In this document: positions 3,796 through 21,491 of the stretch, in pieces
How the letters are laid out: the number at the start of each line of letters is the position of its first letter
Numbering within the stretch: position 1 is the first letter of the stretch
Assembly (NCBI RefSeq): GCF_014280195.1
Contig: NZ_CP047960.1
Span: forward strand, 420,001 to 452,000
DNA length: 32,000 bases
Reading direction: 5' to 3'
Source: Synechococcus sp. A15-24
GTDB taxonomy: Bacteria > Cyanobacteriota > Cyanobacteriia > PCC-6307 > Cyanobiaceae
Position numbers and translations under genes: made by a program
Notes under the pieces: model-generated
What the model was told of the DNA's origin: nothing
Seen by the model: the letters and a program-made list of their open reading frames with translations, nothing else
Database searches by the model: none

Positions 3796-3816
3796 TTTGT
3801 ATGTTGCAAATTAACA

Positions 3817-4980: not shown

Positions 4981-4995
4981 TAAAGCTTCAACTGC

Positions 4996-5031: not shown

Positions 5032-5080
5032 TTACCTCTTGCGCTTAGCCGGTTGCTTCTGGTGACTCATCGCATCTTGA

Positions 5081-6094: not shown

Positions 6095-6552
6095 GACTGG
6101 CCCATAGATGCGGTTCAGAAGCCCTTGAACCGGCCCAATGGATGTTTCGTCCCAGGGATAGGGAAGCGTTGCTGAAGCGTTTGCGACACAAGCGCCTGGT
6201 GGGAATTGAAGCTTGAGGCGGACCTCCCGTAGTGCTCAGACAGGCCCCAACCACGCCAATGCGCCGTGGCTTGCAGCGCTCTCTCCCAAGGCTGCTTCTT
6301 GGACTGCCGAGGCACGTTTCGGGATAAAACTCGGGATAAAACTACTCTCCGCGACTCTCCAGCGCAACTGACAGCTATCTAGAACTACAGTGCTGGAAAG
6401 GCTTTGTCCTGAAACGCGTTGCGCTGACTGAGCTAATTTCAGTGCTATCACCCAAATGACTCATGGGGCCTGGAAGGGCCCTTTTCAATCTTTAAGGGAT
6501 AAGGCCGCACTGCTCAGTAGGCTGATCGTTGGCGAACTGAAAGGGCGAAGGA

Positions 6553-6898: not shown

Positions 6899-7603
6899 TC
6901 AGTTGAGCTGACCGCGACTGAGATGGTCTAGGTCGATATCGCTGTAAAACAGCTTCAGATCGTTGTCATAGCGATCAGCGACGAGATGGACGAGTCCTGA
7001 GTCTTCGAAGTACCGAACGACGTCGTTGTGATCGTCACCTCGACGACGATTCTTTTCGGGAAGATTGCCGAGAGTTGGCAATCGTTCTTGTCTCAAGCGT
7101 CGTTGCAACTGTTGCCAATCGCTCTCCATGGTTTCCAGGCGTCCAATGAAACTGGGGATGAGTTGACCATCGAGGCAAAGGATGTTGCTTTGAGGTAGCA
7201 GATGCACATCAAGGTCAGCATCGCTCGTCGTCGCAATGCATTCCAGAAAAGCTGAAAAAGCCATGCCGTGCTTCAGTCCCATGGCTTGCATTGGCCCAGG
7301 GACGTCATCCAATTCCAAAATCTTGTTGTTGTAGGCGGATACCAGTCGATCAAATGGATTGCGCACGAAGCTGAAGCTGAAGTGCGTGCCACGGCACATG
7401 CGTGCGGAGTGATTGTCCACCATGGAGGTCTCTCCATGGGTGCCTTTGCTCCAGAACGCGTCCGAGGTGGTGCGTAATCCCTTCTCGGGTGAAGTCGTCA
7501 GTAACCGGTAGAGACAAGCTTTGATCGAGCTGTTCGCAACTTTTGGGACTCGGCCATAAAGCAGAGGCAGGTCGCGAAACTGAATGAAATGACGCTCGCT
7601 CAC
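6899..7603 (-). CDS. Sulfotransferase, Sulfotransfer_2-like (carbohydrate sulfotransferase type)
   Basis: LLYGRVPKVANSSIK (5'-PSB-like loop, compare vPKvgsTt) and SFVRNPFDRLVSAYNNK (3'-PB-like RNP.dR..S). It is a paralog of 8439-9215. Its GTG start overlaps the upstream stop (GTGA). Confidence 0.8.
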   Translation of the reverse strand: MSERHFIQFRDLPLLYGRVPKVANSSIKACLYRLLTTSPEKGLRTTSDAFWSKGTHGETSMVDNHSARMCRGTHFSFSFVRNPFDRLVSAYNNKILELDDVPGPMQAMGLKHGMAFSAFLECIATTSDADLDVHLLPQSNILCLDGQLIPSFIGRLETMESDWQQLQRRLRQERLPTLGNLPEKNRRRGDDHNDVVRYFEDSGLVHLVADRYDNDLKLFYSDIDLDHLSRGQLN

Positions 7604-8442
7604 AGGTCCCAGTAATCGCTGGGTTTTCCCATATATGCCAGCATTTGTAGGCTGTCAGGGCGGATACGTCGCAGAACTCGGCGTTTCAATCCGTCGTTCC
7701 ACTGTGGTTTCTCAACGTGACCTCGCCCTTTGTCTCCGGCCTGATTTTCTTTGGGCAGTTGACCATTGGCGTCTAAAAGTCTCTTAACCCTTGGTTTGAC
7801 GCCAAGAAAGTGCATCATGCTGCGTAGTGAACGCCGGGGTGAGCTGAGGAGATCTTCGAAGGTCATGCAATAAATCTGGTCATCTGGGTAAAAACGACGG
7901 AAGGCAGATAGGCGCTGGTAGTACATCGAGCAGCCAACAATCAGCTTGCGCAGGTGGCGGTCACGCATCAGTTCGCTGAAGTCAGCGCAGTCTGGATTGC
8001 GACCTCGGTAGTGACGCCATTGGGACACAATTCGGTCTAGCGGGTGACGAACGATATAAATCAATTTGAGATCTGGCAGGTATCGATGCATTAACTCTGG
8101 TGTTCGACTAAAGGAGTGCAGGCCACTGGCGTACATCGTGCTGCCTTCTCCCCTCAACGGAAAATCTTTGCCCTTTCTGAATCTCGAGGCATACCAGTCC
8201 CAGCCCTTTTTGTAATAACGACCGAAGAATTTGGGCTCCTTGGGTTTGCTGATGAAGACGTCTGGATGTTGCGGCAGGATTGTTGTGAGGGTTGTTGTGG
8301 CAGATTTGGCGGCGCCAATAACGATGAAATTGGGGAGAGAATCATGATGCTGAGCTACGATTTCGGCATGCTTGCCGCGAAGTCCAATGCGGATCAATTT
8401 TATGGAACTCGAGTTGGATGTCATATCAAATGTGTTGATCAA
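7600..8442 (-). CDS. Sulfotransferase, Sulfotransfer_1/3-like (P-loop-type PAPS binding)
   Basis: FIVIGAAKSATTTL (5'-PSB G..KsGTT-like) and IVRHPLDRIVSQW (3'-PB R.P.DR..S). The start is ambiguous: TTG at 8442 or ATG at 8424. Confidence 0.8.
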   Translation of the reverse strand: MINTFDMTSNSSSIKLIRIGLRGKHAEIVAQHHDSLPNFIVIGAAKSATTTLTTILPQHPDVFISKPKEPKFFGRYYKKGWDWYASRFRKGKDFPLRGEGSTMYASGLHSFSRTPELMHRYLPDLKLIYIVRHPLDRIVSQWRHYRGRNPDCADFSELMRDRHLRKLIVGCSMYYQRLSAFRRFYPDDQIYCMTFEDLLSSPRRSLRSMMHFLGVKPRVKRLLDANGQLPKENQAGDKGRGHVEKPQWNDGLKRRVLRRIRPDSLQMLAYMGKPSDYWDL

Positions 8443-9215
8443 GCATTTTGTTTTGTGCGTTGACGCTTCTTGGCCTTGACCACGCCTCGTTGGAGAGGGG
8501 GTAGCTTGTTAAGTTGATGGCCGTCGAGCAGGGCGTCGACGCTGTAGTCACCATAGAAGTGCTTGAAATCCTCTTCATAGCGTTCGATGACTCTGTCAAT
8601 CAGCGCTGCGGAATGGAACAGCACGCGAATATCACTACGCCCTTCGCGACGGACATTTTTCTGTGGGATGGCCCCAAGCGTGGGGAGACCCTCCAATTTC
8701 ATCCGGCGACGTAAGCGTCTCCAATGATCATTCATATGTTCCATGCGCCCGACAAATTTGGGGACGAGTTTGTTCGCACAAAGCAACATCTCGGCCTGCG
8801 GACGAACATGGTTGTCCATCAGCTCAGGATCGGACTTGCAGACAATTTCGATGAAATGATCAAAGGCCATGCCGTGGTGGAGGCCCATTGTTTTCATGGG
8901 CATCGGCACATCCTCAATTTCCAGAATCTTGTTGTTGTAGGCGGCTACTAGCCGGTCGAACGGATTACGAACAAAGCTGAAACTGAAGTGGCTAGAACGC
9001 AGTCGTCTGGCCTGCTGAGGAGTGACCAACTGGGTCTCACCATGGGTGTTTTCACGCCAGAATCGATCAGCAGTCGTTTTGATCCCTCCATCGGGACGAT
9101 TGGACAACAGTTTGCACAGCGTGGTTTTGATCGAGGAGTTGGCCACTTTCGGGACGCGCCCGTACAACAGCGGAATGTCCCGAAACAGGATGAAGTGCCG
9201 AGGCGACTTGCTCAT
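8439..9215 (-). CDS. Sulfotransferase, Sulfotransfer_2-like, paralog of 6899-7603
   Basis: LLYGRVPKVANSSIK and SFVRNPFDRLVAAYNNK. It shares an identical 20-nt string AATCTTGTTGTTGTAGGCGG with the paralog. It has a basic C-terminal tail KAKKRQRTKQNA and an ATGA overlap with the neuB stop. Confidence 0.8.
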   Translation of the reverse strand: MSKSPRHFILFRDIPLLYGRVPKVANSSIKTTLCKLLSNRPDGGIKTTADRFWRENTHGETQLVTPQQARRLRSSHFSFSFVRNPFDRLVAAYNNKILEIEDVPMPMKTMGLHHGMAFDHFIEIVCKSDPELMDNHVRPQAEMLLCANKLVPKFVGRMEHMNDHWRRLRRRMKLEGLPTLGAIPQKNVRREGRSDIRVLFHSAALIDRVIERYEEDFKHFYGDYSVDALLDGHQLNKLPPLQRGVVKAKKRQRTKQNA

Positions 9216-11476
9216 GCCGTCGCAGCTGCTTCGAGTAGTTCGAGGGCCAGCCAGGCAGCCTCACCCCCGTTTTTATGACCCTGCCAGATCTCGGGGATAA
9301 ACGAGGCCTTGGGGCAATGGTGATGAATCTGCTCGAACAGCTGCACCCAGTCGATGTCACCATCGTGAATTTGTAACCCTTCACCGTCCACATCCTTGGC
9401 ATCCGCCAGATGCAGGTGGGCTGTGAACGGCAGGATCTGATCGAGGAACTGACGAAATGGAATGTGTTGATGATTGCAGGCGAGTTTTGAGTGGGAGACG
9501 TCTAGGCAGACCCGCATGCCCTGCTCTTCACAGAACTGGCGGATGAAATCCTGGTCCACGAACAGGTTGTGAAAGCGTTGCCCACCGAAGTGCCAGGGAA
9601 AGGGGGGCATCGTCTGGGGAATGATCTCTACTTCGCCAGCGGTGTTGAGTTGCTGCAAGCTCGCAATCAATCGCTCGCGCAGGGGCTCACGCTCGTTGCG
9701 GTTGAGGTGATGGTGTTCAGAGAAGCCGCCCACATTGGTCACCAGCAACACCGGATCTGGGCATTGGAAGCGAGTCCTCAGATCCCTGGAGATGTCGATT
9801 ACACGCTGCAGTTCGGCGATCGAGTGGTCCCGATAGATCGAGTCCTCCGTGCAGAGGTCCAAGGTGTGGTCGCCGGCGAATAGCTCCGGTGCGTGAACCA
9901 CCAGGCCGATGCCTTGCCGATCCGGAAGGACCTGATTGAGGTCAACTTCCAGATCTTTGTAGCTGAGGTGGATCTCCACCAGATCGAGGTTGCTTACATC
10001 AGAAAAGACCTTGATGTCGTGATATCGAACGGGCAGACCAAACGGTTGTTTGAAGCGGTAGTGGCGTGGAGTCGCCGCCGGCGTTTCCAGATCGGATGGG
10101 AAGAACACCTCTCCCTGAGCCTTGGCCACGGGTAAGCGCCGACCGATCAGATCTTTCAGCCGGTTGGGTTGCAGACCCTGGCCCGGGCTCTGGATGCGCA
10201 CCATCGCTTCGGTGATCTCCGTCCCGGCCGGCACATCACATGCAGCCACGAGGCTTTTGGCCAGCACCTCACGGTTCATCATCTCGCCCTGGCTGATGCT
10301 GCGTTCGCCGCCCTGGCCCATGGATTCCTCCACCCGCCGGATGCCTTGCATCATCTGTGCGAATTCATCAGGCAACAGGCTCACTTTGTGGTCGTTGCCC
10401 TCCATGCCCCGATCGATGGTGATGTGTTTTTCGATCACCGAGGCCCCCATCGCCACCGCCGCGATCGGCACCTCAATCCCCCGCTCGTGGCCCGAATAGC
10501 CCACTGGTGCATCCGCCAGTTCCCGCAGACGTTCCAGGTAGCGCAGGTTCACGTCCTTGAACGGCGTGGGATAGGTGGAATTGCAGTGCAACAGCACGTA
10601 ATTCGCCCCTTCCTGCTGCAGATGACGGATGCCGGAGCGGATCTCCAGTTCGCTGGCCATACCGGTGGAACAGATCAGCGGTTTGCCGGTGGCGGCCAAC
10701 TGGCTGATCAACGCGTGGTTGGTGAAATCGGCGGAGGCCACCTTGAACCCCTCCATGCCCCAGCCATTCAGCTTCTCCAGGCTGGTCTCATCCCAGGGGG
10801 TGCACAGCGGCACGAGCCCTTTTGAGGCGGCGTAGTCGAAACAGCGGAACAACTCATCGTCGCTCAGCTGGAACCGTTCCAGCAGATCCAGGGTGTACTG
10901 GGTCCCCAGATCCGAGGCCATGTCATTGCTGTTGCCGGCGTTGCTGTACAGCTTCGACATGTCCCGCATCTGGAACTTGGCGCAGTCCGCACCAGCCGCA
11001 TGGACGGCATCAATCAGCTGAAGCGCTATTGCAACATCACCGTTGTGATTGTTGCCGATTTCGGCAATCACGAAACTGGGCTCTCCATCACCGATTCGGC
11101 GGGAGCCAAGCTGCAAACCGTCTGTGGCTGGTAACGCGACCGCCACGATCCGGCCGTGGCTGTCCAGCAATGGCAGGGCAATGATCCGCGACGTCAGCAG
11201 ACCTGCAAGTTCTGCAGGAGGCGTGCCCTCAGCAGCGTTGCGGCAGTCGGGGTTCATCGCCGCCGTTACCGGACGGTTCAAATCGATGTCACCGCAACTT
11301 GCAATCCAGCGACGGAAATCGCCATCGGTGAGAACACCCTGCAAGATGCCGGACTCCGACACCACAAAAATCAGCCGCGACTGATTGGCGGTGATTTTGC
11401 TGAGGGCGGAGAGGATCGTGTCTTCAGCGAATACGACGAACTGCGTGAAGTTCCTCTCGATCTGGATCCCCTTCAC
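9212..11476 (-). CDS. neuB: Nonulosonic (sialic-acid-like) acid synthase fusion: CBS pair + NeuB + SAF + xylose-isomerase-like TIM barrel
   Basis: N-terminus is CBS-like (ILQGVLTDGDFRRW). The NeuB core is FVIAEIGNNHNGDVAIALQLIDAVHAAGADCAKFQ. The SAF region is LVAACDVPAGTEITEAMVRIQSPGQGL. The C-terminal roughly 265 aa (about 9215-10009) has AP_endonuc_2/TIM-barrel-like HAPE...DVSH...HLAD...EIW blocks. GTG start. Confidence 0.85.
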   Translation of the reverse strand: MKGIQIERNFTQFVVFAEDTILSALSKITANQSRLIFVVSESGILQGVLTDGDFRRWIASCGDIDLNRPVTAAMNPDCRNAAEGTPPAELAGLLTSRIIALPLLDSHGRIVAVALPATDGLQLGSRRIGDGEPSFVIAEIGNNHNGDVAIALQLIDAVHAAGADCAKFQMRDMSKLYSNAGNSNDMASDLGTQYTLDLLERFQLSDDELFRCFDYAASKGLVPLCTPWDETSLEKLNGWGMEGFKVASADFTNHALISQLAATGKPLICSTGMASELEIRSGIRHLQQEGANYVLLHCNSTYPTPFKDVNLRYLERLRELADAPVGYSGHERGIEVPIAAVAMGASVIEKHITIDRGMEGNDHKVSLLPDEFAQMMQGIRRVEESMGQGGERSISQGEMMNREVLAKSLVAACDVPAGTEITEAMVRIQSPGQGLQPNRLKDLIGRRLPVAKAQGEVFFPSDLETPAATPRHYRFKQPFGLPVRYHDIKVFSDVSNLDLVEIHLSYKDLEVDLNQVLPDRQGIGLVVHAPELFAGDHTLDLCTEDSIYRDHSIAELQRVIDISRDLRTRFQCPDPVLLVTNVGGFSEHHHLNRNEREPLRERLIASLQQLNTAGEVEIIPQTMPPFPWHFGGQRFHNLFVDQDFIRQFCEEQGMRVCLDVSHSKLACNHQHIPFRQFLDQILPFTAHLHLADAKDVDGEGLQIHDGDIDWVQLFEQIHHHCPKASFIPEIWQGHKNGGEAAWLALELLEAAATA

Positions 11477-11514
11477 AGTTCGCCCCGCAGGTGCCTAAGC
11501 AGAACCAGTGGACA

Positions 11515-12828
11515 CTACCCCACGTCCCTGTAAGTCAGGCTCAGCAGCAGGCGCCTGATGATCCGGTTCCGTTGCTGCACAGCCCGTGAGCGGCGAGCCA
11601 CATTGCGATGGGTCGGTCGCATCAGGCTCCCGAGTTGCAACAGGCTCTGTGCTTCCTGCCAATTCTTTTGACGGATGGCTCGCTCAGCGTCGCGTCGCAG
11701 CTGCGTGAAGCTGAGATTGGCGTTGGAAAGATATCCCGATGTTGTGCTGAGGCGTTCAGGTGGATCGGCACGCAGCTGGCGTAGGGCCTCGATCAGCTCC
11801 ACAGGGTCGAGATTTGTGCCGTAGCCCATCCAAGCCAGCCAGTCGGCGTCTGGCGAGGGCAGTGAATGATCAAGAGCATCAAGGTCCTCGACCTCATCAA
11901 GGCAGCGCCAAACGCCCGATCCCGCGAAGACATGGCTGCCGTTGGCAGGATTGATGCCGAAGTCGGCTATCACCAGGGGCCTGCAGCCCATATCCAATGC
12001 GTCGAAAAAGGCGGTGGATGAAATGGTGGCCATCAGCCTGGCCTGACGCAGCAGGTCGGGCAAAGCCCGGTAGTCGAATTTCAGGTTGTCGGGGGGGTGG
12101 CCAAGGGTCTGCAGCAATGTTGTGCTGATGTGGTCTTTGATGCTGTGGAAGGTTGTCTCTCCAGGGGCAATACGCGGTTTGATCAACACCTCCCAGTCCG
12201 GGGAACGCCGGGCAAGGTCCGCCAAAATCCGCACCATCTCAGCGCGGTCAATGGGGTTTGAAGGCATCACCACCTGTTCCGCGAACACCAGTTGCTTGCG
12301 CCTCTGTTGTTGGTCGAGGAGCTGATCATCTGAGATCTCCTGGCGGTGCAATCCGGTGAGAACCGTGCGCTGACCGGCAAACGGACTTCCCTCCAGCATT
12401 CGGTCCAGCGCCTCACGATCCCGTGGGCCACTGAGGCAGACGAGGTCGTAACCCAGCCGCCAGCTCATGCCTTCCATGAACTTCTCCAGCACTACGCCGT
12501 TGAAGCCGCAGAACAACAGCGGTCGCTCACGACTGGGCAGCAATCCCAACGCCAGTCGAAAATCACTGACCTTGCTGCCGGTGAGGTACACACCAATGGC
12601 ATTGAACTGGCGCAGCTCGGGGTGAGTCAGCAATTGCCCCATGTCCAGCCGCCAAAGGTCACCAAGGGCAGCAGCCCGCTGCAGAATCGAATCGGGTGTT
12701 CCCTCACGCGGAATGGCGTTGATGGTGACCTGAATGTTGAGGTCCGACGGGAAGCGACATAGCGCTTCACAGGCCAACAATTGGCTGTCGCTGTCGCCGA
12801 TCAGCAACAGTTTGAACGGACCATTCAT
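11515..12828 (-). CDS. Paralog 1 of 3: putative CMP-sugar-dependent GT-B glycosyltransferase (polysialyltransferase/KpsS-like motif layout)
   Basis: VLIKPRIAPGE, then about 55 aa, then MATISSTAFFDALDMG. This mirrors hhKxHP ... SS/T..h.EA in KpsS, KpsC and NeuS. Clear paralogy to 12825-13880 and 13877-15208. It has a basic amphipathic C-terminal tail. Existence of the CDS is solid; the function is inferred. Confidence 0.6.
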   Translation of the reverse strand: MNGPFKLLLIGDSDSQLLACEALCRFPSDLNIQVTINAIPREGTPDSILQRAAALGDLWRLDMGQLLTHPELRQFNAIGVYLTGSKVSDFRLALGLLPSRERPLLFCGFNGVVLEKFMEGMSWRLGYDLVCLSGPRDREALDRMLEGSPFAGQRTVLTGLHRQEISDDQLLDQQQRRKQLVFAEQVVMPSNPIDRAEMVRILADLARRSPDWEVLIKPRIAPGETTFHSIKDHISTTLLQTLGHPPDNLKFDYRALPDLLRQARLMATISSTAFFDALDMGCRPLVIADFGINPANGSHVFAGSGVWRCLDEVEDLDALDHSLPSPDADWLAWMGYGTNLDPVELIEALRQLRADPPERLSTTSGYLSNANLSFTQLRRDAERAIRQKNWQEAQSLLQLGSLMRPTHRNVARRSRAVQQRNRIIRRLLLSLTYRDVG

Positions 12829-13880
12829 GGCAGCAACTCCACCAGGCGGCGGATCAGGCGCGCGGCGCCGTCATGCACCCCCCAGCCCATGGACTGCAGC
12901 CAGGACGTATTGACGGGTGGCAAACCCAGCAGTTGATCCATGTGGTCGATCGACTGCAGGCGATGCATCAGTCCGCTGCCGAAGAACGTCGTTGTGTCTT
13001 GATCGGAGTGGATGCCGTAATCGCCGATGAGCAGGGTTGGTCGGCCCCAGGCCATAGCAGTCAGGCTCCAGGGGGAGCTGACGCTGAGACAGGCGCTGCA
13101 GCTGGCCAGCTGGCTCAGGAGCTGACCAGGTGCACCAAACACCAGGTTGTCGGGGAAGGTCCAGTCGCTGGATTTGAACTTGGAGATCCAGGGCTGACCT
13201 TTCTCCCAGGCGTGGTCGCGTTGGATCACAATCGACCACTCCGGGGACGTTTCAGCCCAGCGGATCAATTGCTGCAGCAACTGTGCCTTGGCACCGATCT
13301 GGGTGGGGATGCCCTCCTGAACCAGAGCGAGCAGGGTATGGGGCGGTTTTGCGGTTCCGCCTTTGAGAGCTCCGAGGGGAGGACGTTCCGGAGAGAACCA
13401 ATGCCCGATCGCCACGATTGATGGACTGGCCACGCTCTCGGGCCAGAACTGTGTGATCGCCTCAAGCTCCCGTCGCTGACGATCCCCTGGCACCACCAAG
13501 AGATCACAGCATTGGCGGTCGCTCAGCTGATGAACCAGGCTGTCACCAAGGGAGGCCTGGAGAGGACCGCTGAACACCACAGCTGGCTGCACACCACGCT
13601 GCCGGGCGAGGTGTCGGTGAGCATGGGTAAAGAGCTCAAGGTGGTCGCTGCGACGGATGAACAACCCAACGGCGCTGGCGGACTCCAACAGCTCATGGCC
13701 CAGCAGATCCATCAGGGTCAGTGGGATTTGCGGGGTGACGGAAGGCAGAGGGCTGTCTCGGCTTGTGGACAGCGCCGGTCCAATGGTCAGGCAGGACTGA
13801 CCGCGCTGCTCAAGCTGCTGTTGCAGCAGCTGGCAGGCCATAGCGCTGCGGTCGTCATCACTGACCAGAAGGATTGTCAT
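12825..13880 (-). CDS. Paralog 2 of 3: divergent member (IVIQRDHAWEKG instead of KP[HR])
   Basis: SPEWSIVIQRDH...CLSVSSPWSLTAMAWGRPTLLIGDYG aligns with paralogs 1 and 3. I prefer ATG 13880 (MTILLVSDDD), which gives an ATGA overlap with the upstream stop, over GTG 13895. Confidence 0.55.
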   Translation of the reverse strand: MTILLVSDDDRSAMACQLLQQQLEQRGQSCLTIGPALSTSRDSPLPSVTPQIPLTLMDLLGHELLESASAVGLFIRRSDHLELFTHAHRHLARQRGVQPAVVFSGPLQASLGDSLVHQLSDRQCCDLLVVPGDRQRRELEAITQFWPESVASPSIVAIGHWFSPERPPLGALKGGTAKPPHTLLALVQEGIPTQIGAKAQLLQQLIRWAETSPEWSIVIQRDHAWEKGQPWISKFKSSDWTFPDNLVFGAPGQLLSQLASCSACLSVSSPWSLTAMAWGRPTLLIGDYGIHSDQDTTTFFGSGLMHRLQSIDHMDQLLGLPPVNTSWLQSMGWGVHDGAARLIRRLVELLP

Positions 13881-15208
13881 CGCTCCCTTAGCCACCGAGA
13901 CAACCAGCCAAAGCCCACCAGCCCATCGCGGAGTCGGCGCAGAAGGGTGCGGGTTTTGTGCCGTTTTTGCTGGCTGGAGCGCGCACCACCGCTGCTGAGC
14001 ATGCGGCGGCCGCCGTGACGGATGGCGTAGGTCTGCCAGCTGCGGCTGCCCCAGCTGGCCGGTCCAAGACCATCGCTTTGCAACGGGGGCCGCTCGCCAT
14101 GCAGTTGTTTCAACAGGGCTGTCAGAAAGATCTCCTGCCCTTGGGGTTGGTGGCCGTGGCGTTGCAACCAGTCGACCTTGTGAACGGGTGTGAACGGGTC
14201 ACGACAGATTGCCGCGAAGTCCGCAACGGCCCCTGATTCCGCAAAAAAGTGATTGCCCAGGGTCTCGGTGACACCGAGATCGCCCACAATTCGAGTGCTC
14301 ACGCCCATGGCCATGGCCTCAAGGGCTGCCGTTGACGAGACGGTGATGGCGCAGCCGCATTGCCGCAGCAGCCGCGTGGCTGGCTTGAAACTGAGTTGCA
14401 AATTGGGGACCGTGTCACTCATTCGCTCGATCACACCAGCCATTTCGCCGTGGCGACGGTGCAGGGTGCTCTCGATGCTGGAGGTTCGCGGTTTGAAGAT
14501 CACCGGATGATTGGGCCAGGCTTCCGCCAGCTCCTTGAGTTGCTTGCAGATGTAGCGCCGTTGCAGCGGATGGACCGGTATCGAGGGCTGCTCGAAGAAC
14601 ACAATCGATGGGTTGTCGGGCAAGGGTTGCTCGGATCTGGCGTTCCAGAGCAACGGCAAGCCCGTTACTACGGCGTTATCGCTGGTTAGCCCCAGGGCCT
14701 CACGGCCGCGCCGGTACTGGGCGAAATCCTGATCACTGTTGAGGCAGAGCAGATCAGCCCCGGAGCGATCCAGCATGCCCTCCAGGGCAAAACGGAAGAG
14801 AATGCCCGGATAGGCGCTGACAAGAACCGGGCGGTCCGTGCGGCGATGCCACTCTTTCGACAGCATCAGTAGCGCATCACGGCCGCGGAGACCGTCCAAG
14901 CCCAGAATCAGCACATCGGTATCACCGGCCATGGCGGCGGTGAGGCTGCGGAAGTCACCCCATGCTCCTTTTTTAATTGTGGTGCGGCGGTCCGTGCGGC
15001 TGATCTCCAGGCGTTGGCGGCGAGAGAGGGCCCGGTTGGACACCTGCAGCAGATGCAAGGTTGTCTCAGCTCCCTCACTCCGGCAGGCGGCGAGCAAGGT
15101 CATGGCCACCTTGCCGAAGGAGTCGAAGCAGGCGACGGCGGCCACCTTTCTGCCGGAGAGGCGCTTATCGGCAGCGGGCGCCATCGTCGGGCTCCGGGAA
15201 TCTGGCAA
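13877..15208 (-). CDS. Paralog 3 of 3: putative CMP-sugar-dependent GT-B glycosyltransferase
   Basis: VIFKPRTSSIE ... AITVSSTAALEAMAMGVSTRIVGDLG, and VLVSAYPGILFRFALEGM matching LLFCGFNGVVLEKFMEGM of paralog 1. The C-terminal tail is basic (KRHKTRTLLRRLRDGLVGFGWLSRWLRER). The start is TTG 15208 or ATG 15184. Confidence 0.6.
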   Translation of the reverse strand: MPDSRSPTMAPAADKRLSGRKVAAVACFDSFGKVAMTLLAACRSEGAETTLHLLQVSNRALSRRQRLEISRTDRRTTIKKGAWGDFRSLTAAMAGDTDVLILGLDGLRGRDALLMLSKEWHRRTDRPVLVSAYPGILFRFALEGMLDRSGADLLCLNSDQDFAQYRRGREALGLTSDNAVVTGLPLLWNARSEQPLPDNPSIVFFEQPSIPVHPLQRRYICKQLKELAEAWPNHPVIFKPRTSSIESTLHRRHGEMAGVIERMSDTVPNLQLSFKPATRLLRQCGCAITVSSTAALEAMAMGVSTRIVGDLGVTETLGNHFFAESGAVADFAAICRDPFTPVHKVDWLQRHGHQPQGQEIFLTALLKQLHGERPPLQSDGLGPASWGSRSWQTYAIRHGGRRMLSSGGARSSQQKRHKTRTLLRRLRDGLVGFGWLSRWLRER

Positions 15209-15210
15209 AA

Positions 15211-15891
15211 CTAACTGGCAGTGAGAGCCGCAAGGCTGCGGCAGAGGGCCAGATCGGCCGGTGTATCGATCTCCGGCCCCGAGTCCTCGATCACCACCGG
15301 TTGCCAGGGGGCACAGAAGCGGCTGCCTTCGGCGCGGAAACAGGCGGTGCTCATGGCGTAAATCGCACCGGTTTCCAGAAAGGCTGGCTCCAGGTCCTGC
15401 CGCCGTTGACGGGGTTGTTGGGGGTCGTGGTTGATCCCGCGGCCGTCACTGCGCCAGAGAAAGCCATGCCATGGCGCGACGGCGAAGGCACTGTTGATCT
15501 CTGGGTTCTCAAGTGCTGTCAGCACCTGGTCGATCTGCGCACCGCTGGTGAAAGGAGACGTGCACTGCAGGAAGACCAGCAGGGGAGGCAGTGGCCCTTG
15601 CTGTTCCAAGGTGTCCAGGGCATGCAGCAGGGCTGACTCGGAGCTGGCCGTGTCACCGGCGATGGCGACCGGACGACACACCACCTCAGCACCATGGACC
15701 TGGGCTTCCATGGCGATGGCGTCATCGTCGGTGCTGACCACCACCCGATCCACCCCGCGGCTAGCGAATGCAGCCTGCACACTGCGAGCCACCAGGGAGA
15801 GCCCGCCCACCTTCTGCAGATTCTTGCCGGGAATCCCTTTGGAGCCGCCCCGCGCTGGAATCACAGCCAGGGCTCCAGCGGTCGCGCTCAT
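15211..15891 (-). CDS. neuA: Acylneuraminate cytidylyltransferase (CMP-nonulosonate synthetase)
   Basis: LAVIPARGGSKGIPGKNL is the NeuA-type CTP_transf_3 N-terminal motif, not the KdsB-type IPAR..S.RLPGKPL. Size is 226 aa. Confidence 0.85.
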   Translation of the reverse strand: MSATAGALAVIPARGGSKGIPGKNLQKVGGLSLVARSVQAAFASRGVDRVVVSTDDDAIAMEAQVHGAEVVCRPVAIAGDTASSESALLHALDTLEQQGPLPPLLVFLQCTSPFTSGAQIDQVLTALENPEINSAFAVAPWHGFLWRSDGRGINHDPQQPRQRRQDLEPAFLETGAIYAMSTACFRAEGSRFCAPWQPVVIEDSGPEIDTPADLALCRSLAALTAS

Positions 15892-15925
15892 CAGAGAGGA
15901 TTCAGGTCGCTCCCCCTCCTACCCG

Positions 15926-17911
15926 ATGATTCAGCGCTTCGGGGTGCCGGAGACCGGTCTACTGGCCCATCGCACGGTGCCGGCGCTGCTGGCTCCGGCG
16001 CAGTTGCTGCCGGGCCGGCGGCGGGATGTGGAGGTGTTGCTGGCCTGGGGGCGACGCCCCAGTGCCCGGCGGGTCGAGCGCTTGGGGCGGCGCTGGCAGC
16101 TACCGGTGTGGCATTTGGAGGATGGTCTGCTGCGCTCCTTGGCCAAGGGCCGCCAGCATCCGCCGCTGGCGCTGTTGGTTGATGACCTGGGGGTTCATTT
16201 CGATGCCACTCAGCCCAGCCGGATGGAGCAGCGGATTCAGCAACCGCTGACCCCTGCACAACACAACCGGGCCCGTGAACTTCAGCAGCGGTGGTGTGCA
16301 CAGCGGCTGAGCAAGCTCAACCCCGCCCGGGAATCACCGGCTCCAGCCGAGCCTTTTGTGCTGGTTGTGGACCAGTCCGCCGGCGACTGCTCCATCGGCC
16401 TCGGGCAAGCCGGGCCGGAGAGCTTCCGGCGCATGTTGCAGGAGGCGCTGCGGGATCAGCCGGACTGTCTGGCGGTGGTGAAGGTGCATCCGGATGTGAT
16501 CCGGGGCCGCGCCCGGGGCCATTTCCGCCGGCAGGATCTGCAGCACCCGCGCATCCGCGTTTGCGCTGACGGATTGCACCCTGCCGCCCTGTTGGAGCAG
16601 GCCCAGGCGGTGTATGTGGTGACCTCCCAGATGGGCTTCGAAGCACTGCTGTGGGGGCGAACGGTCCACTGCTTTGGCATGCCCTTCTATGCCGGTTGGG
16701 GGCTGACCCATGATCGTCTGCCGGCTCCGGTCCGTCGGGGGCAGATGGTGCCTTTGGAAGCGCTGGTGCATGCAGTGCTGGTGGCGGGCACCCGTTGCGT
16801 GGATCCCCATCACCATCAGCCCTGCCCGATCGAAACGTTGATGGATGCCATCGGGCTGCAACGCCGCCTGCAGGTGGCGGATCCTCAGCGGGTGGAAGCC
16901 TTCGGGTTTACGCCCTGGAAGCAACGCAGCCTCAAGCGCTTTCTGGCCGGCAGTGAGCTGCGCTTCCGCCTGCCGCGGGCGTGGCCGGGGCGGCGGGCGG
17001 AGGCCGTGGCGGTGTGGGGGCGGCGGGCGCGACCACGCCTGCTGGCCACGGCGCGCCAACGGTCGCTGCCGCTGCTGCAGGTGGAGGACGGCTTCCTGCG
17101 TTCGGTGGGGCTGGGGGCGGATCTGATCGATCCGATCTCCTGGGTGGTGGACCTCCGGGGGATGTATTACGACGCCACGGAGAGCAGCGATCTGGAGCAT
17201 CTTCTGGCCACCGCTGACTGGAGTAAGCCGCAGTTGCAGCGGGCTGAGGCCCTGCGCCAACAGCTGGTGGAGCAGGCGATCACCAAGTACAACCTGTCGG
17301 GAGATGGGTGGCAGCGCCCCAAGGGGGTCCGGCGGGTGGTGTTGGTGGTGGGCCAGGTGGAAAGCGACGCTTCAATCCGCTACGGCGCTCCCGGGATCAC
17401 CACCAACCTGGCTCTGCTGGAGGCTGTTCGGGCCGCTGAACCGGATGCTTTTGTGGTTTACAAGCCCCATCCGGATGTGGTGGCGGGCCTCTGCCGCTCT
17501 GGGGAAGGGGAAGAGCGGGCTGGGCAGGTCTGCGATTACCTGTTGGTTGATGGTTCGATCCATGCCCTGTTTGAGCAGGTGGATGCCCTGCATGTGCTCA
17601 CCTCACTGGCGGGATTTGAGGCGCTGCTGCGGGGGGTGGAGGTGCACTGCTGGGGACTGCCCTTTTATTCGGGTTGGGATCTGACGCATGACCGGTTGTC
17701 GTCTCCCCGGCGGGGGCGGCCGCTGCCATTGGCGGCTTTGGTGCATGCCGCCTTGATTGATTACCCCCGCTACGTCAGCCGTCACAGCGGTTGGTTCATC
17801 ACTCCAGAGCAAGCCATTGAGGAGCTGGTGGCCTGGCGGGATGCACCTGCAGCTCCACGCACCCTGGTGCAGGCCCTGTTCCGCCACTGGGGGCGACTGC
17901 GCCGCCGCTGA
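15926..17911 (+). CDS. kpsC: KpsC-like capsule beta-Kdo transferase (tandem Capsule_synth domains)
   Basis: Colinear with E. coli KpsC as I recall it. Shared blocks are MIQRFG.. start, LAWGRRPSA, WHLEDGLLRS, VVKVHPDV, VYVVTSQMGFEALLWG..CFGMPFYAGWGLT. The second repeat has LQVEDGFLRSVGLGADL, YYDATESSDLE, KYNL, VGQVESDASI, VVYKPHPDV, VLTSLAGFEALLRG..CWGLPFYSGWDLT. The track ORF start at 15431 is an antisense-overlap artefact; ATG 15926 is in frame. Confidence 0.9.
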   Translation: MIQRFGVPETGLLAHRTVPALLAPAQLLPGRRRDVEVLLAWGRRPSARRVERLGRRWQLPVWHLEDGLLRSLAKGRQHPPLALLVDDLGVHFDATQPSRMEQRIQQPLTPAQHNRARELQQRWCAQRLSKLNPARESPAPAEPFVLVVDQSAGDCSIGLGQAGPESFRRMLQEALRDQPDCLAVVKVHPDVIRGRARGHFRRQDLQHPRIRVCADGLHPAALLEQAQAVYVVTSQMGFEALLWGRTVHCFGMPFYAGWGLTHDRLPAPVRRGQMVPLEALVHAVLVAGTRCVDPHHHQPCPIETLMDAIGLQRRLQVADPQRVEAFGFTPWKQRSLKRFLAGSELRFRLPRAWPGRRAEAVAVWGRRARPRLLATARQRSLPLLQVEDGFLRSVGLGADLIDPISWVVDLRGMYYDATESSDLEHLLATADWSKPQLQRAEALRQQLVEQAITKYNLSGDGWQRPKGVRRVVLVVGQVESDASIRYGAPGITTNLALLEAVRAAEPDAFVVYKPHPDVVAGLCRSGEGEERAGQVCDYLLVDGSIHALFEQVDALHVLTSLAGFEALLRGVEVHCWGLPFYSGWDLTHDRLSSPRRGRPLPLAALVHAALIDYPRYVSRHSGWFITPEQAIEELVAWRDAPAAPRTLVQALFRHWGRLRRR

Positions 17912-17931: not shown

Positions 17932-19959
17932 GTGCTGGACGGCGATTTGGGCAGGGGACGGGCGCCGGCGCTGGTGCAGGTGCGCATCGAAGGACCGGTT
18001 CTGCTGCTGATGGGCCCGATCGGGCTGTTCTTTGCCCGCTTCAGCCGATACCTGCAGGGATGTGGCATCCCGGTCACCAAGGTGCGTTTTCCTTTGCGGG
18101 AATTCGGCTTCCCTTCGGACGTGTGTGTGCCGTTTCAAAAGCCGATGGAGGCCTGGCGGCCCTTCCTGCGTCAGCTGCTGCAGGAGCGCGGCATCCGACA
18201 CATCTTCATGTATGGGGACTTCATCATTCCCCACCGGATTGCCATCGAGGAGGCTCGCGACCTGGGGGTGGAAGCCTGGGTGTTCGAACTCGGATACCTG
18301 CGCCCCAACTACGTGACCCTGGAGCGGGATCGGGTCAACGCCCGCTCCAACCTCAACCAACCCGCGGCCTTCTACCGCAACCTGCCACCGGTGGATCAGC
18401 TGCCGCCGGAGATTGTGCTGGATCCGGGCTGGCGCTGGCGCAAGGCCTGGAAGGCTCCCACGTTCATTCAACACGCCTTCACCCGCTACCCGATCATTGA
18501 GGGGGAGCACAAACTGCAGCCCAATCCGGGCTTCCTCTGGTGCCAGCTGCGCGGCAGCTGGCGTTACTGGCTGTACCGCTGGCAGGAGCGCAACCTGAAG
18601 CGCCGGCTGCTGGAGCACCTGTCCTTCTTCCTGGCGGTGCTGCAGGTGTCCAGTGATTCCCAGATCCAGCTGGGGTCGCCCTACCGCGGCATGCACGACT
18701 TCATCGAAGACGTGATCCGCTCCTTTGCGGACCATGCCCACAGCTCCGACCATTTGGCTTTCAAGCACCACCCGCGGGACCGGGGCTACAACCATTACGG
18801 CAGCCTGATTGGTGTGCTGGCGCGCCGCTACGGCGTCTGCGGGCGGGTTCACTACTTCCACGACGGTGCCCTCAGCCGCTACCTGCGCACCTGCCGCGGT
18901 GTGATCACGGTGAACAGCACGGTGGGCCTCCAGGCCCTGTTCCATGCGGTGCCCACCAAAACCATGGGCAATACCTTTTACAACCTGGAGGGGCTGACGG
19001 ATCAGAAGCCCCTGGATGGGTTTTGGCGGGACCCCCAGCCCAGTGACCGAGCGCTGTTCTGGCGGTTTTACCACCACCTGGTGATGACCACCCAAGTGAA
19101 CGGCAATTTCGACGGGGACTTCCCCTTCCGGATCACCTTCCCGATCGGCCTTGAGGCTCGCCAGCTCGAACCGCAGCCGCAGTTGCCGCCGCTGCGTCCA
19201 CGGCCACGGATAAACCCCCTGCTGCTGCCGGTGCGGGTGCTGGCTCGCCTGGGTTGGGCAGCCCTGGGGTTTGTCTTGTACGGCCTGCAGCTGCCAGCGG
19301 TGCTGCTCCGCCGATCGGACTGGGCGGCTCAGCTGATGACCTGGGCGTCTGCTGTGGCGTTGCGGGCGCTTGGGGTGCAGGTGGTGGTTGATGACAGCCA
19401 GCCCAGTGAGCCAGCTGTGGTGCCCCTGGTGCATATCTTCAACCACCGCAGCCCCTGTGATGGCCTGGTGATTCAGGGGGTGTTGCGCCTGCCGGGCATG
19501 ACCACGGCGCAGCTGCATCTGAAGTGGGTGCTGCCTGGCTATGCGGCTGCGGCCCGCAATGCCGGCTCGGCCGTTCTCGATCATCGCCAGCCCAGTTCGC
19601 GGCTGGAGGGAATGATGCGGGCCTCAGCGTTGTTGCGCGATCACGGCCAGATCATGCTGGCCCCCAACGGCTCCCTGGTGACGCCGATCGAACAGCGGGT
19701 CTCCCCCAGCGCCTGGATGCTGGCTCAGCATTACAACGGTTCGGTTGTGCCCTGGCTGTTCCGCTACGACGGGCTGGAGGGGGCCGTGGGAGCCCGGTAC
19801 AGGCCTTGGGCGCTGCTGCTCAGCCGGTTGACGGCTCCACTTGGAACGATTCACTGTCGCCGCGGGCGCTCCCAGGATCTGGTTCTGCCTAAGGATCCTC
19901 GGGACCGGGAGGGGTTTAGCCGGGCTGTGCAGGCGTACTACCAGCAAGTACAAGACTGA
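17932..19959 (+). CDS. kpsS: KpsS-like Kdo transferase fused to a C-terminal PlsC/LPLAT-type acyltransferase domain
   Basis: KpsS blocks are LLLMGPIGLFF, FELGYLRPNYVT, FFLAVLQVSSDSQI, LAFKHHPRDRG, VITVNSTVGLQALF, MTTQVNGNF. These are followed by a Pro-rich linker and a hydrophobic segment. Next come the HX4D box FNHRSPCD (His codon 19444-19446, Asp codon 19459-19461) and APNGS (19660-19674) in the position of the FPEGT block. GTG start. Confidence 0.85.
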   Translation: MLDGDLGRGRAPALVQVRIEGPVLLLMGPIGLFFARFSRYLQGCGIPVTKVRFPLREFGFPSDVCVPFQKPMEAWRPFLRQLLQERGIRHIFMYGDFIIPHRIAIEEARDLGVEAWVFELGYLRPNYVTLERDRVNARSNLNQPAAFYRNLPPVDQLPPEIVLDPGWRWRKAWKAPTFIQHAFTRYPIIEGEHKLQPNPGFLWCQLRGSWRYWLYRWQERNLKRRLLEHLSFFLAVLQVSSDSQIQLGSPYRGMHDFIEDVIRSFADHAHSSDHLAFKHHPRDRGYNHYGSLIGVLARRYGVCGRVHYFHDGALSRYLRTCRGVITVNSTVGLQALFHAVPTKTMGNTFYNLEGLTDQKPLDGFWRDPQPSDRALFWRFYHHLVMTTQVNGNFDGDFPFRITFPIGLEARQLEPQPQLPPLRPRPRINPLLLPVRVLARLGWAALGFVLYGLQLPAVLLRRSDWAAQLMTWASAVALRALGVQVVVDDSQPSEPAVVPLVHIFNHRSPCDGLVIQGVLRLPGMTTAQLHLKWVLPGYAAAARNAGSAVLDHRQPSSRLEGMMRASALLRDHGQIMLAPNGSLVTPIEQRVSPSAWMLAQHYNGSVVPWLFRYDGLEGAVGARYRPWALLLSRLTAPLGTIHCRRGRSQDLVLPKDPRDREGFSRAVQAYYQQVQD

Positions 19960-21181
19960 TGTTGTGACCGCCGAAGCCGAAGGCGTTTTTGAGCAGCAGG
20001 CGTTGGCCTTGATCAGAAGACAGCTCAACAGGACCCTGGTTGGCCACCGCCAGCTCCACCTCAGGATCCAGGGGATCGGCATTTAGGCTGCCGGGTAACA
20101 CTCCGTGACGCAGGGCCTGCAGGGCCAGGATGGTTTCTACCGCTCCGGCGCCCCCCAGCAGATGGCCGAGTTGGCCTTTGGGGGCGCAGACCGGCAGATG
20201 ATCGGCGGCACTGCCGAGGCTGCGCCGCAATGCTCTGGCCTCCGCCAGGTCGCCGAGGCTGGTGCCGGTGGCATGGGCCTGAACGCCGCAGAGGTCCGAG
20301 GCGCTCACATCCGCCCGGCGCAGGGCATCATCAATGGCACGGCTGGCCTGTAGCCCCTGGGGTTCGGGGGAGACGATGTGATGAGCATCGCTGCTGCTGC
20401 CGCTGGCCAGCAACCAACCCAGATCCGCTCCTGCTGGCGTGTCCCGCTGCCGCATCAGGGCCAGGACGCCGGCGCCTTCGGAGAGCACAAAGCCATCTCT
20501 ATTGAGCCCATAGGGACGGGAGGCCTGATCGGGGGCGTCGTTGCGGCCGGAGAGGGCGCGCATGGCAGCAAAGCCCACAAGCCCCAGTCGGTTCACTGGT
20601 GCTTCGCTGCCTCCGGCCAGCACCAGATCGGCGCGGTCGTCGTTGAGCAGCATCTGGCCCAGCATCAACGCTTCGGCGCCCGAGGCGCAGGCGGACACCG
20701 GGGTGTGGGCACCGCCGAGCAGACCGAACTCGATGGCGACCTGACCAGCGGCAGCATCGGGGATCAGCATCGGCACGGTGAGGGGGTTGACCCGGCTCGG
20801 TCCCCCTGCGCTGAGTTGCGTGTGCTGCTCGTGCATCGTGGCGAGGCCGCCGATGCCGGTGCCGATCACCACAGCGATCCGACTTGGATCGAGCCCTTGT
20901 GTGATGGACCCGGCCATGGCCCAGGCCTGCCGCGCGGCCACCAGGGCAAGCTGGGCACAGCGATCGGAGCGGCGGCGGAGCAGGGGCGGCAGGCTGTCGA
21001 GGGCCCTCGTTGGGACGCAACCGGCCAGGCGCACGGGCAGATCCTCGGTCCAGGCAGCCTGGAGGGTCTGGATGCCGCTGTGACCAGCGATCACCGACGT
21101 CCAGGTGCTGTCGGCATCGGCACCAAGGGGGTTGAGGGAACCCCAACCCACCACTGCGGTGGGCTCAGCTCGGGAAGCCAT
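19916..21181 (-). CDS. Beta-ketoacyl-ACP synthase (FabF/FabB-like elongating KAS, Cys-His-His)
   Basis: Active-site contexts are PVSACASGAEAL, VQAHATGTSLGD, KGQLGHLLGGAG, and the C-terminal NAFGFGGHN. The 3' end overlaps the convergent kpsS-fusion gene by 44 nt. Confidence 0.85.
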   Translation of the reverse strand: MASRAEPTAVVGWGSLNPLGADADSTWTSVIAGHSGIQTLQAAWTEDLPVRLAGCVPTRALDSLPPLLRRRSDRCAQLALVAARQAWAMAGSITQGLDPSRIAVVIGTGIGGLATMHEQHTQLSAGGPSRVNPLTVPMLIPDAAAGQVAIEFGLLGGAHTPVSACASGAEALMLGQMLLNDDRADLVLAGGSEAPVNRLGLVGFAAMRALSGRNDAPDQASRPYGLNRDGFVLSEGAGVLALMRQRDTPAGADLGWLLASGSSSDAHHIVSPEPQGLQASRAIDDALRRADVSASDLCGVQAHATGTSLGDLAEARALRRSLGSAADHLPVCAPKGQLGHLLGGAGAVETILALQALRHGVLPGSLNADPLDPEVELAVANQGPVELSSDQGQRLLLKNAFGFGGHNISLVLAGSTPAQPG

Positions 21182-21446
21182 CGGCCGGGCTGGGGCTCAA
21201 GGACTCCAGGTGCTGCTGAATGTCCGCAACGGTGCGGAACCGGAGTAGTTCCTCCTCTTTAATCCGGATTCCGAAGTTGGTGTCCGCCTCGATCAGGATT
21301 TCGTAGAACCCAAGGGAATCAATTCCCACGTCCTCCATCAGCCGGGCGTTAGGGGTGATCACGGCTGGGTCGGCGCCGGAGATGCGATGCAGGATCTCGA
21401 TCAGCCGTCCCTGCAGCTCTTGCTTGTCAGGGCAGCTCTCTCCCAA
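21165..21446 (-). CDS. Acyl carrier protein (dedicated, locus-encoded)
   Basis: The phosphopantetheine attachment context is DVGIDSLGFYEI. Size is about 93 aa. TTG start, with no upstream ATG. It overlaps the KAS start by 17 nt. Confidence 0.7.
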   Translation of the reverse strand: MGESCPDKQELQGRLIEILHRISGADPAVITPNARLMEDVGIDSLGFYEILIEADTNFGIRIKEEELLRFRTVADIQQHLESLSPSPADGFPS

Positions 21447-21491
21447 CGCACAACCTCTTATTGAGTAGCCAAAGTACCAGTGATGGTGGGA

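Follow-up and report, generated by a model that had tools for sequence, protein, structure and literature searches.

Three consecutive genes on the minus strand of Synechococcus sp. A15-24, at positions 11515-15208 of a 32,000-nucleotide stretch (contig NZ_CP047960.1, positions 420,001 to 452,000; hereafter the window), encode paralogous proteins, P1, P2 and P3, that are assigned by sequence comparison to the family of Escherichia coli K1 NeuE. They are placed between a gene for a NeuA-like synthetase of cytidine monophosphate (CMP)-ulosonic acid (15211-15891) and a gene for a NeuB fusion protein (9212-11476), within a kps-type, ABC-transporter-style capsule locus of marine and freshwater picocyanobacteria. 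We favour, with some reserve, a reading that makes P1 and P3 CMP-nonulosonate transferases of the inverting kind, with P2 as their degenerate partner. Beside KpsC and KpsS, the three proteins appear to be the only candidate transferases in the window for a sialic-acid-like sugar.

Results

Three Tandem Members of the NeuE Family

P1 (11515..12828, 437 amino acids, 'FAEQV' type), P2 (12825..13880, 351 amino acids) and P3 (13877..15184, 435 amino acids, 'FFEQP' type), all on the minus strand, are mutually alignable, as a sequence-only reading of this DNA had held. Pairwise BLASTP gives expectation values (E) of 6e-29 for P1-P3 (30% identity), 3e-11 for P1-P2 and 7e-6 for P2-P3, and one common Pfam model recognizes all of them. 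This model, PF20471 ("DUF6716 putative glycosyltransferase"; gathering threshold 27 bits), scores 177.5 bits in P1 (E = 4.8e-52), 62.8 bits in P2 (E = 3.7e-17) and 200 bits in P3 (E = 6.6e-59), with about 230-330 of its 342 positions covered; no NCBIfam model matches P1, P2 or P3. The Synechococcus orthologs already carry the DUF6716 name at NCBI, with near relatives in Synechococcus sp. A15-28 and similar strains.

The neuE gene of E. coli K1 strain UTI89, flanked by neuC and neuS, is annotated in RefSeq as DUF6716. Its product scores 56.6 bits on the Pfam model (cut-off 27), aligns by hhalign with the profile of the family at a probability of 97.7% (E = 1.7e-12), and matches P3, P1 and P2 in BLASTP with E of 4.6e-16, 8e-10 and 2.7e-5, respectively. 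On these scores the three genes are assigned to the NeuE family, which has a name and a founding member long studied genetically; the earlier description of P1-P3 as an unclassified family was therefore wrong. In an exhaustive profile search of the family, 1,064 cluster representatives passed a limit of E <= 0.001 and 407 passed one of E <= 1e-30, alphaproteobacterial proteins being among the named examples.

The lengths given for the three proteins in the sequence-only reading (437, about 351 and 443 amino acids) stand for P1 and P2, whereas the orthologs set P3 at 435 amino acids, with its start at ATG 15184 and not at TTG 15208 of the listed open reading frame (ORF). Similarly, P2 starts at ATG 13880 within an ORF listed as 12825-13895, as judged from the ortholog length of 351 amino acids. 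Both junctions, P3/P2 and P2/P1, are ATGA stop/start overlaps, by which the three genes are translationally coupled. P1 ends in a basic, TPR-like extension and P3 in a basic helix, with a net charge over the last 60 residues of +11 and +13, respectively; P2 is a divergent DUF6716 paralog without such a tail. The basic amphipathic tails noted earlier for P1 and P3 are thus upheld as to charge, and as to amphipathicity for P1, where the terminal 18-residue windows have the top hydrophobic moment of the protein, but not for P3, where the top windows lie elsewhere.

Conserved Motifs

The peptides on which the sequence-only reading relied are all present in the translations: LVFAEQ, EVLIKPRIAPGE and MATISSTAFFDALDMG in P1; IVFFEQ, PVIFKPRTSSIE and AITVSSTAALEAMAMG in P3; SIVIQRDHAWEKG and CLSVSSPWSLTAMAWG in P2; FKHHPRDRG ... 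VNSTVGLQAL in KpsS of the window; and VKVHPDV ... VTSQMGFEAL in KpsC of the window. The motifs that it gave for the polysialyltransferase NeuS are also correct, since UTI89 NeuS has IFIKPHPKE (K285, H287, P288) and LTSSSLVYA (S337). The spacing from the motif Lys to the Ser-Ser block is 52 residues in P3, 53 in P1, 48 in P2, 51 in KpsS, 52 in NeuS, and 47-48 and 46-47 in the KpsC modules. The Lys-Pro-Arg codons were confirmed at 12172-12180 for P1 (K217-P-R219) and at 14486-14494 for P3 (K231-P-R233), both on the minus strand.

Among the orthologs of P1 and P3, the residues E198, Q199, P203, K231-P-R233, E238, H242, N261, S283-S284 and D302-x-G304 vary little or not at all (P3 numbering here and below). 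Across 154 diverse family members, E238 and H242 are likewise near-universal, and the conserved residues of the N-terminal domain are D21-S22, R118-P119, G127, R140, D144, N149 and D153. From the same 154 members we derived a family signature of four elements, namely Q-x-x-x-P (about 145 of the 154), [KR]-x-R (about 135), S-S (144) and D-hydrophobic-G (D-[FLY]-G in about 145). P1 and P3 have all four and P2 has three, lacking [KR]-x-R; the corresponding NeuE motifs are QVNEP, IFKTR and ISSS, together with FSRSG. The combination K-x-H was found in none of the 154 proteins. Hence the Arg that stands in place of His, noted earlier for P1 and P3, is the norm of the family, shared by NeuE, and not a peculiarity of these two proteins. 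As matters stand, P1-P3 are ordinary proteins of a family that already has a name.

Relation to KpsC/KpsS and Other CMP-Sugar Transferases

At the sequence level, the nearest other family is Capsule_synth, which comprises KpsC and KpsS. As a second Pfam match it appears, marginally or below threshold, for 32 of the 108 family members compared (best E = 4e-6); Epimerase_2 appears weakly for 11 of the 108 (best E = 0.008). P1 scores 17.7 bits on Capsule_synth (PF05159, E = 0.0025), under the threshold of 20, and P2 and P3 give no match. In hhalign, the family profile aligned with a combined Kps profile, made from the KpsC-N, KpsC-C and KpsS modules of the window and related loci, with a probability of 89.6% (E = 1.9e-6) over P3 residues 189-321. 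In this alignment, Q199 corresponds to the Gln of the QxxxD motif of KpsC/KpsS, the invariant P203 or a gap falls on the Asp nucleophile, K231 and R233 occupy the columns of the Lys and His of K-x-H-P, S283-S284 match the Thr/Ser-Ser pair, and FFAESG matches FYAGWG. The motif correspondence proposed from the letters of the DNA thus survives profile alignment, with Arg on the His column and with the Gln and F-x-x-S-G blocks in addition, and is real.

KpsC and KpsS (GT107) and their relatives WbbB (GT99), KrkA (GT140) and KpsS1 (GT118) have a C-terminal domain detectably homologous to that of P1 and P3, and the four motif blocks of KpsC/KpsS are found in DUF6716 in the same order and with similar spacing. 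[quoted passage not shown] The Gln, Lys and Ser/Thr-Ser, which serve the carboxylate, cytosine and phosphate (PMC12887879), are kept in P1 and P3. In contrast, the Asp column of QxxxD holds the invariant Pro or a gap, so that there is no catalytic Asp nucleophile, and His-Pro is replaced by Arg and a variable residue, the Lys of (K/R)xHP being retained in P1 and P3 and the whole motif being Q-R-D in P2. The Pfam score is below threshold, and the predicted overall architecture of DUF6716 is that of a canonical GT-B protein. Because the Asp nucleophile is replaced by Pro, double-displacement retaining chemistry at this position is excluded.

The GT38 enzymes NeuS and MhPST and those of GT52 and GT80 are similar to P1 and P3 in their metal-independent GT-B fold, capsule context and inverting chemistry, the latter being a prediction for P1 and P3. 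NeuS has the same layout, two hydrophobic residues and K-x-[H] followed by S-S, with a spacing of 52 versus 52-53 in P1 and P3. In GT38, the His is assigned to stabilizing CMP as it leaves, with E153 as the catalytic base (PMC5517516). P1 and P3 differ in having Arg for this His, and the D/E-D/E-G base motif was not identified in their sequences; the conserved acidic residues D21, D144 and D153 sit outside any such context, as judged from sequence and not from superposition. The GT38 model PF07388 does not match P1-P3 at E <= 1 (UTI89 NeuS itself gives E = 2.7e-44), and hhalign of the family profile with one GT38-like protein, a rough negative control, gave a probability of 0.2%; sequence homology with these sialyltransferases was thus not detectable.

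Predicted Fold

The AlphaFold2 model of P3, calculated from a 108-sequence alignment, has a mean predicted local distance difference test score (pLDDT) of 89.4 and a predicted template modelling score of 0.87. It consists of two Rossmann-like alpha/beta domains, strands and helices alternating in both, and C-terminal helices of lower confidence. A Foldseek comparison of the model with PDB gave 236 matches at E <= 0.001, and the best 50 of the 236 are all GT-B proteins: non-hydrolysing UDP-N-acetylglucosamine (UDP-GlcNAc) 2-epimerases at the top (E about 5e-9, template modelling score 0.55-0.66), with which the model aligns end to end, and then assorted GT-B transferases. The C-terminal domain modelled alone (pLDDT 91) matched generic GT-B proteins only, which made the assignment no sharper, with the glycerophosphotransferase TagF at rank 44 (E = 1.7e-3). 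Structure prediction had been named beforehand as a test on which a transferase assignment could fail; it gave GT-B, in agreement with Foldseek, and we are confident in the prediction of a canonical GT-B fold for P3. The conserved residues of the C-terminal domain follow strands 193-197, 228-231, 276-281 and 296-300, as defined from secondary structure, which places them at what would be the usual GT-B donor crevice, read from secondary structure and not from coordinates. A phmmer search of the PDB sequences found nothing significant, the best match being WbbB (E = 0.22, for P3).

The Degenerate Paralog P2

The earlier remark that P2 is more divergent is correct but understates the difference, since P2 is without 8 of about 17 family-universal residues (S22, N149, D153, E198, K231, R233, H242 and T285), including K231, R233 and H242. 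In its orthologs, residue 198 is Val, Ile or Ala and K-P-R has become Q-R-D; they keep the Gln, P203, N261, S-S, D-x-G, F-x-G-S-G and W339. P2 is also the fastest of the three, with an identity among orthologs of 28-80% against 46-82% for P1 and 54-86% for P3. Its ratio of nonsynonymous to synonymous substitution rates is 0.13-0.23, indicating purifying selection; with this ratio, an intact ORF and a constant length in about 45 genomes, the reading of P2 as a decaying pseudogene is rejected. As universal residues have been lost and yet the gene is maintained and translationally coupled, P2 is most likely either a pseudo-glycosyltransferase partner of P1 and P3 or a differently specialized, substrate-switched protein.

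Distant Homologs and Known Systems

Nine distinct contexts of distant DUF6716 homologs (L049, L050 and L052-L058) were examined. The neuB and/or neuA genes adjoin in five of them: L049 (Falsiroseomonas), with NeuB, a NeuA-like protein, GT8, DUF6716, pyruvyl transferases and a GT29-like protein; L050, with KpsD/M/T-like proteins, NeuB, a NeuA-phosphatase fusion, two DUF6716 proteins, a methyltransferase, a sulfotransferase and a KpsS-like protein; L052 (Chenggangzhangella), with DUF6716, NeuA-phosphatase, NeuB, DUF6716 and GT4; L056, with DUF6716, NeuB and DUF6716; and L057, with NeuB, NeuA and two DUF6716 proteins. A sixth context, L053 (8051-11935), combines a sulfotransferase, DUF6716 and a GT38-like polysialyltransferase, and thus resembles the NeuE and NeuS arrangement of E. 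coli with sulfation added. Taken together with E. coli K1, the five contexts tie the homologs to neuB/neuA across phyla. The remaining contexts are L054, an actinobacterial-looking contig with a DUF6716-GT8 fusion of 1,110 amino acids (2593-5925), which fits a glycosyltransferase role; L055, a cyanobacterial variant with three DUF6716 genes beside KpsC/KpsS; and L058, where a DUF6716 gene of 502 amino acids (9001-10509) lies beside four flagellin genes and hook genes, an arrangement that may be linked to flagellin glycosylation with nonulosonic acids. In L049, the DUF6716 protein has 656 amino acids (10001-11971), and the GT29-like protein is of the eukaryote-type sialyltransferase family. The two-copy loci have one P1-like gene (FAEQV) and one P3-like gene (FFEQP), the pairing being clear in L050, L052 and L056 but less so in L057; such pairs, which recur across phyla, point to an old split between P1 and P3 that is present outside the cyanobacteria.

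NeuE shares with P1-P3 the Q-x-x-x-P, K-x-R, S-S and F-x-x-S-G motifs and the Trp, and its locus, like that of the window, contains kpsC, kpsS, neuA and neuB; the C-terminus is membrane-directed in both cases, although by a hydrophobic anchor in NeuE and a basic amphipathic tail in P1 and P3. NeuE is divergent, lacking R140, D144, H242 and D-x-G of the family, and is a single copy beside the GT38 polymerase NeuS, whereas the window has three paralogs and no NeuS. Its role has been described as undetermined (PMC5654933). In Streptomyces coelicolor, SCO4879, NeuE-related by published description, is in one operon with NeuA (SCO4880) and NeuB (SCO4881), and the cluster makes a polymer of 2-keto-3-deoxynononic acid (Kdn), teichulosonic acid, with no NeuS mentioned (PMC3479208; PMC13011467). 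This cluster follows the same logic as the window, being likened to it by description only, and its product belongs to the cell wall of a Gram-positive organism instead of a kps capsule. Searches of the literature for DUF6716 and for Synechococcus together with nonulosonic acid returned nothing relevant.

The Capsule Locus

The placement of P1-P3 between neuA and neuB, given in the sequence-only reading, is borne out by the Pfam matches of both flanking genes. The NeuA-like cytidylyltransferase (15211..15891, minus strand, 226 amino acids) matches CTP_transf_3 (E = 2e-22); its best NCBIfam model is PseF (123 bits, below the cut-off of 206), and the KdsB models score lower. The nonulosonate synthase (9212..11476, minus strand, 754 amino acids) is a fusion of an N-terminal CBS domain, NeuB (Pfam E = 3.5e-79), SAF and a C-terminal xylose-isomerase-like TIM barrel (AP_endonuc_2). 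It falls under the NCBIfam cut-offs for NeuB and PseI, and both proteins are under all equivalog cut-offs; across related loci the fusion is 69-91% identical. Downstream of it, on the same strand, lie three sulfotransferase genes at 6899-7603 (Sulfotransfer_2), 7600-8442 (Sulfotransfer_1/3) and 8439-9215 (Sulfotransfer_2), which are syntenic in related genomes.

On the plus strand, KpsC (15926..17911, 661 amino acids, Capsule_synth E = 4e-76) has two modules of the beta-Kdo-transferase type, intact in QxxxD and K-x-H-P (VVDQSAGD/VKVHP and VVGQVESD/YKPHP). Its listed ORF, 15431-17911, is overextended by 165 codons across neuA on the opposite strand, the true start being ATG 15926 (MIQRFGV...); owing to the high GC content around KpsC and neuA, long but spurious ORFs are numerous there on either strand. 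KpsS (17932..19959, plus strand, 675 amino acids) is fused to a PlsC-type acyltransferase (Capsule_synth E = 6.5e-54, and Acyltransferase), has QVSSD and FKHHP intact, and matches the NCBIfam KpsS model with E = 2.6e-82, below cut-off. It is followed by genes, assigned by Pfam/NCBIfam, for a beta-ketoacyl synthase (19916-21181, minus strand), an OlsF/GNAT-like N-acyltransferase (21492-22403, minus strand) and a Wza/KpsD-like polysaccharide export protein (22459-23571, plus strand), the latter being the sole export component in the window (1-32000); purB lies beyond it. The block from the KpsS-acyltransferase to the OlsF/GNAT-like gene (17932-22403) is syntenic in about 40 genomes, and the flank from the beta-ketoacyl synthase to the exporter keeps its order in about 40 picocyanobacterial loci. 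The acyl genes beside KpsS suggest that the locus has a lipid anchor dedicated to it, which may differ from the lyso-phosphatidylglycerol of E. coli. The window has no other glycosyltransferase, no NeuS homolog or NeuS-type polymerase, and no neuC.

The whole order, purB, the exporter, the GNAT-like protein, beta-ketoacyl synthase, KpsS, KpsC, NeuA, P3, P2, P1, NeuB and the sulfotransferases, is kept in about 45 species-level genomes of marine Synechococcus, Cyanobium, Vulcanococcus and freshwater Prochlorococcaceae, found in a search run from P3 orthologs only. Therefore the locus is old and conserved, and is not a strain-specific island. One of its carriers, a metagenome-assembled genome titled Bradyrhizobium ivorense (CALRKN020000008.1), has the whole picocyanobacterial locus from purB to the sulfotransferases at 52-87% protein identity to the window, and this assembly is probably mislabelled or mis-binned. 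In a freshwater relative (L028, 17665-20980), the region past the sulfotransferases encodes a third distinct sulfotransferase-like protein and GT2-like and GT61-like glycosyltransferases, so that the composition of the polymer probably differs between lineages. To the left of the sulfotransferases, positions 900-6100 of the window are a probable border with a variable island: they include a ParA-like ORF at 964-1791, a stretch of low GC content (0.44 at 4001-5000) carrying a metalloprotease-like ORF that has a Pro/Glu/Thr-rich repeat (3817-4980), and a 337-amino-acid ORF (5081-6094) that has no Pfam or NCBIfam match and is integrase-like by appearance only.

Discussion

Family membership, paralogy, synteny, the motif correspondence, the GT-B fold and the link with neuB/neuA follow from the comparisons above. 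The donor, chemistry, division of labour and product that we propose for P1-P3 can be outlined as follows; the polymerizing or branching role suggested in the sequence-only reading is likewise a proposal. The NeuB fusion and the NeuA-like enzyme would make a CMP-activated nonulosonic acid, most likely Kdn or a sugar similar to N-acetylneuraminic acid, because the window contains neither legionaminic nor pseudaminic acid pathway genes, nor NeuC. KpsS and KpsC would build a glycolipid primer, P3 and P1 would move the nonulosonate from CMP onto the primer and the growing chain, and the three sulfotransferases would then decorate the polymer. P1 and P3 may act on this glycolipid at the membrane, held there by their basic C-terminal tails, and may differ from each other in acceptor or linkage, for example in priming versus elongation, with P2 as a partner. 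[quoted passage not shown] Single-displacement, inverting chemistry is predicted because the Asp nucleophile of the retaining Kdo transferases is the invariant P203 here; the general base could come from D144, D153 or D21 of the N-terminal domain, or from D302.

Several observations weigh against this scheme. Structure comparison puts UDP-GlcNAc 2-epimerases first, and KpsC, WbbB and the sialyltransferases are outside the top 50 Foldseek matches, both for the whole model and for the C-terminal domain; an hmmsearch of the PDB sequences with the family profile found nothing significant, and hhalign with single Kps modules gives probabilities of just 13-57%. The spatial clustering of the proposed site residues is predicted from secondary structure. 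KrkA requires the His of its HP motif (PMC12887879), and a site where this His is replaced may not be one for CMP at all. The sugar of the NeuB fusion is not pinned down by the NCBIfam equivalog models. No kpsM, kpsT or kpsE is present in the window, so that the genes of the transporter must lie outside it, or a transporter of a different kind must be used. Finally, no activity of NeuE or any DUF6716 protein was found in the literature searched, and E. coli genetics, where polysialic acid is still formed inside neuE mutants and the defect is suppressed when NeuS is overproduced, has been read as an accessory, structural or export role of NeuE (PMC2408645).

The last point leads to the most serious alternative, that P1-P3 are non-catalytic accessory or scaffold proteins that tether or stabilize the real polymerase and couple it to export, their 'site' residues being structural or binding the polymer or lipid. 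The description of NeuE as an accessory membrane protein (PMC2408645), its hydrophobic anchor and the membrane-directed basic tails of P1 and P3 all suit such a role, as does a degenerate site in P2, the gene of which is nevertheless maintained. We consider it rather unlikely, since neither the window nor its syntenic relatives have a NeuS-type or other polymerase to be assisted, and the proteobacterial loci hold little beyond neuB, neuA and two DUF6716 genes. Moreover, the near-universal residues are predicted at the C-terminal ends of the Rossmann beta-strands of the C-terminal domain, where GT-B enzymes bind the donor, and align with the CMP-binding residues of KpsC; the GT8 fusion resembles bifunctional polymerases; and NeuE has also been called a putative priming sialyltransferase (PMC5517516).

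The other alternatives keep an enzymatic role and change the substrate. Dependence on CMP-Kdo, with P1-P3 extending or decorating the poly-Kdo linker or building a Kdo-containing repeat, would agree with KpsC/KpsS as the nearest family, the weak phmmer match of P3 to the beta-Kdo transferase WbbB, the conserved Gln that binds the Kdo carboxylate, and the frequency of Kdo in group 2 capsule repeat units (PMC12887879); it is improbable in view of the invariant Pro in place of the Asp nucleophile of the retaining Kdo transferases, the company of neuB/neuA rather than kdsA/kdsB that the family keeps in E. coli K1 and in five of the nine distant contexts, and the sole cytidylyltransferase of the locus, which scores PseF above the KdsB models. 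That one or more of P1-P3 is a UDP-GlcNAc 2-epimerase-like NeuC analog, supplying hexosamine to the NeuB fusion, is very improbable. Here the top Foldseek matches of the whole model and of the C-terminal domain, the weak Epimerase_2 matches of 11 of the 108 members and the absence of neuC from the window are set against the score of P3 on PF02350 (10.6 bits versus a threshold of 30.6, E = 0.25), which covers the generic C-terminal domain only; NeuC and NeuE stand side by side in E. coli K1, so that the family is no NeuC substitute there, and a soluble epimerase is at odds with the GT8 fusions, the membrane tails and the presence of two or three paralogs in a locus. We give least credence of all to TagF-like phosphotransferases of cytidine diphosphate (CDP)-glycerol or CDP-ribitol making a teichoic-acid-like linker. 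Transition transferases of the TagF kind reportedly occur in other group 2 capsule loci, TagF is in the Foldseek list of the C-terminal domain, and L050 carries a separate Glyphos_transf gene. This TagF match does not surpass the generic GT-B matches; Glyphos_transf (PF04464) does not match P1-P3 and is missing from the 25 commonest secondary families of the 108 members, and the window has no CDP-glycerol or CDP-ribitol synthesis genes.

Starting from the preferred assignment of P1 and P3 as inverting CMP-nonulosonate transferases, a bolder and more doubtful extension can be formulated for the entire family. DUF6716 proteins might be inverting CMP-nonulosonate transferases in which Arg replaces the His of all other CMP-sugar transferases, forming an evolutionary bridge from canonical GT-B enzymes to the aberrant beta-Kdo transferases KpsC, KpsS and WbbB, and the P1-P3 pair with the pseudo-enzyme P2 might form a NeuS-free, self-sufficient polymerase of a sulfated poly-nonulosonate capsule. 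To our knowledge, such a capsule, if real, would have no precedent among bacteria as a nonulosonate polymer that is sulfated.

What NeuE does in the synthesis of the polysialic acid capsule, as accessory export protein or as priming sialyltransferase, has been in question since the 1990s. The locus described here offers a cleaner test of a NeuE-type role, since it has no NeuS and combines two catalytic-looking subtypes with one degenerate copy, all coupled; it is this setting, a deeply conserved picocyanobacterial kps/neu locus with sulfotransferases and three NeuE-type genes, that is of specialist interest. If P1 and P3 are active, they would define a new nonulosonate transferase family at the level of CAZy with an Arg-based leaving-group site, and their similarity to KpsC/KpsS would bear on the origin of the beta-Kdo transferases. 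In addition, the locus gives a hint that abundant phototrophs of the sea may carry a sulfated nonulosonate capsule. In marine Synechococcus and in freshwater lineages of the Cyanobium type, a sulfated acidic capsule would have a bearing on the adsorption of phages, on grazing and aggregation, and on the pools of marine sulfated polysaccharides.

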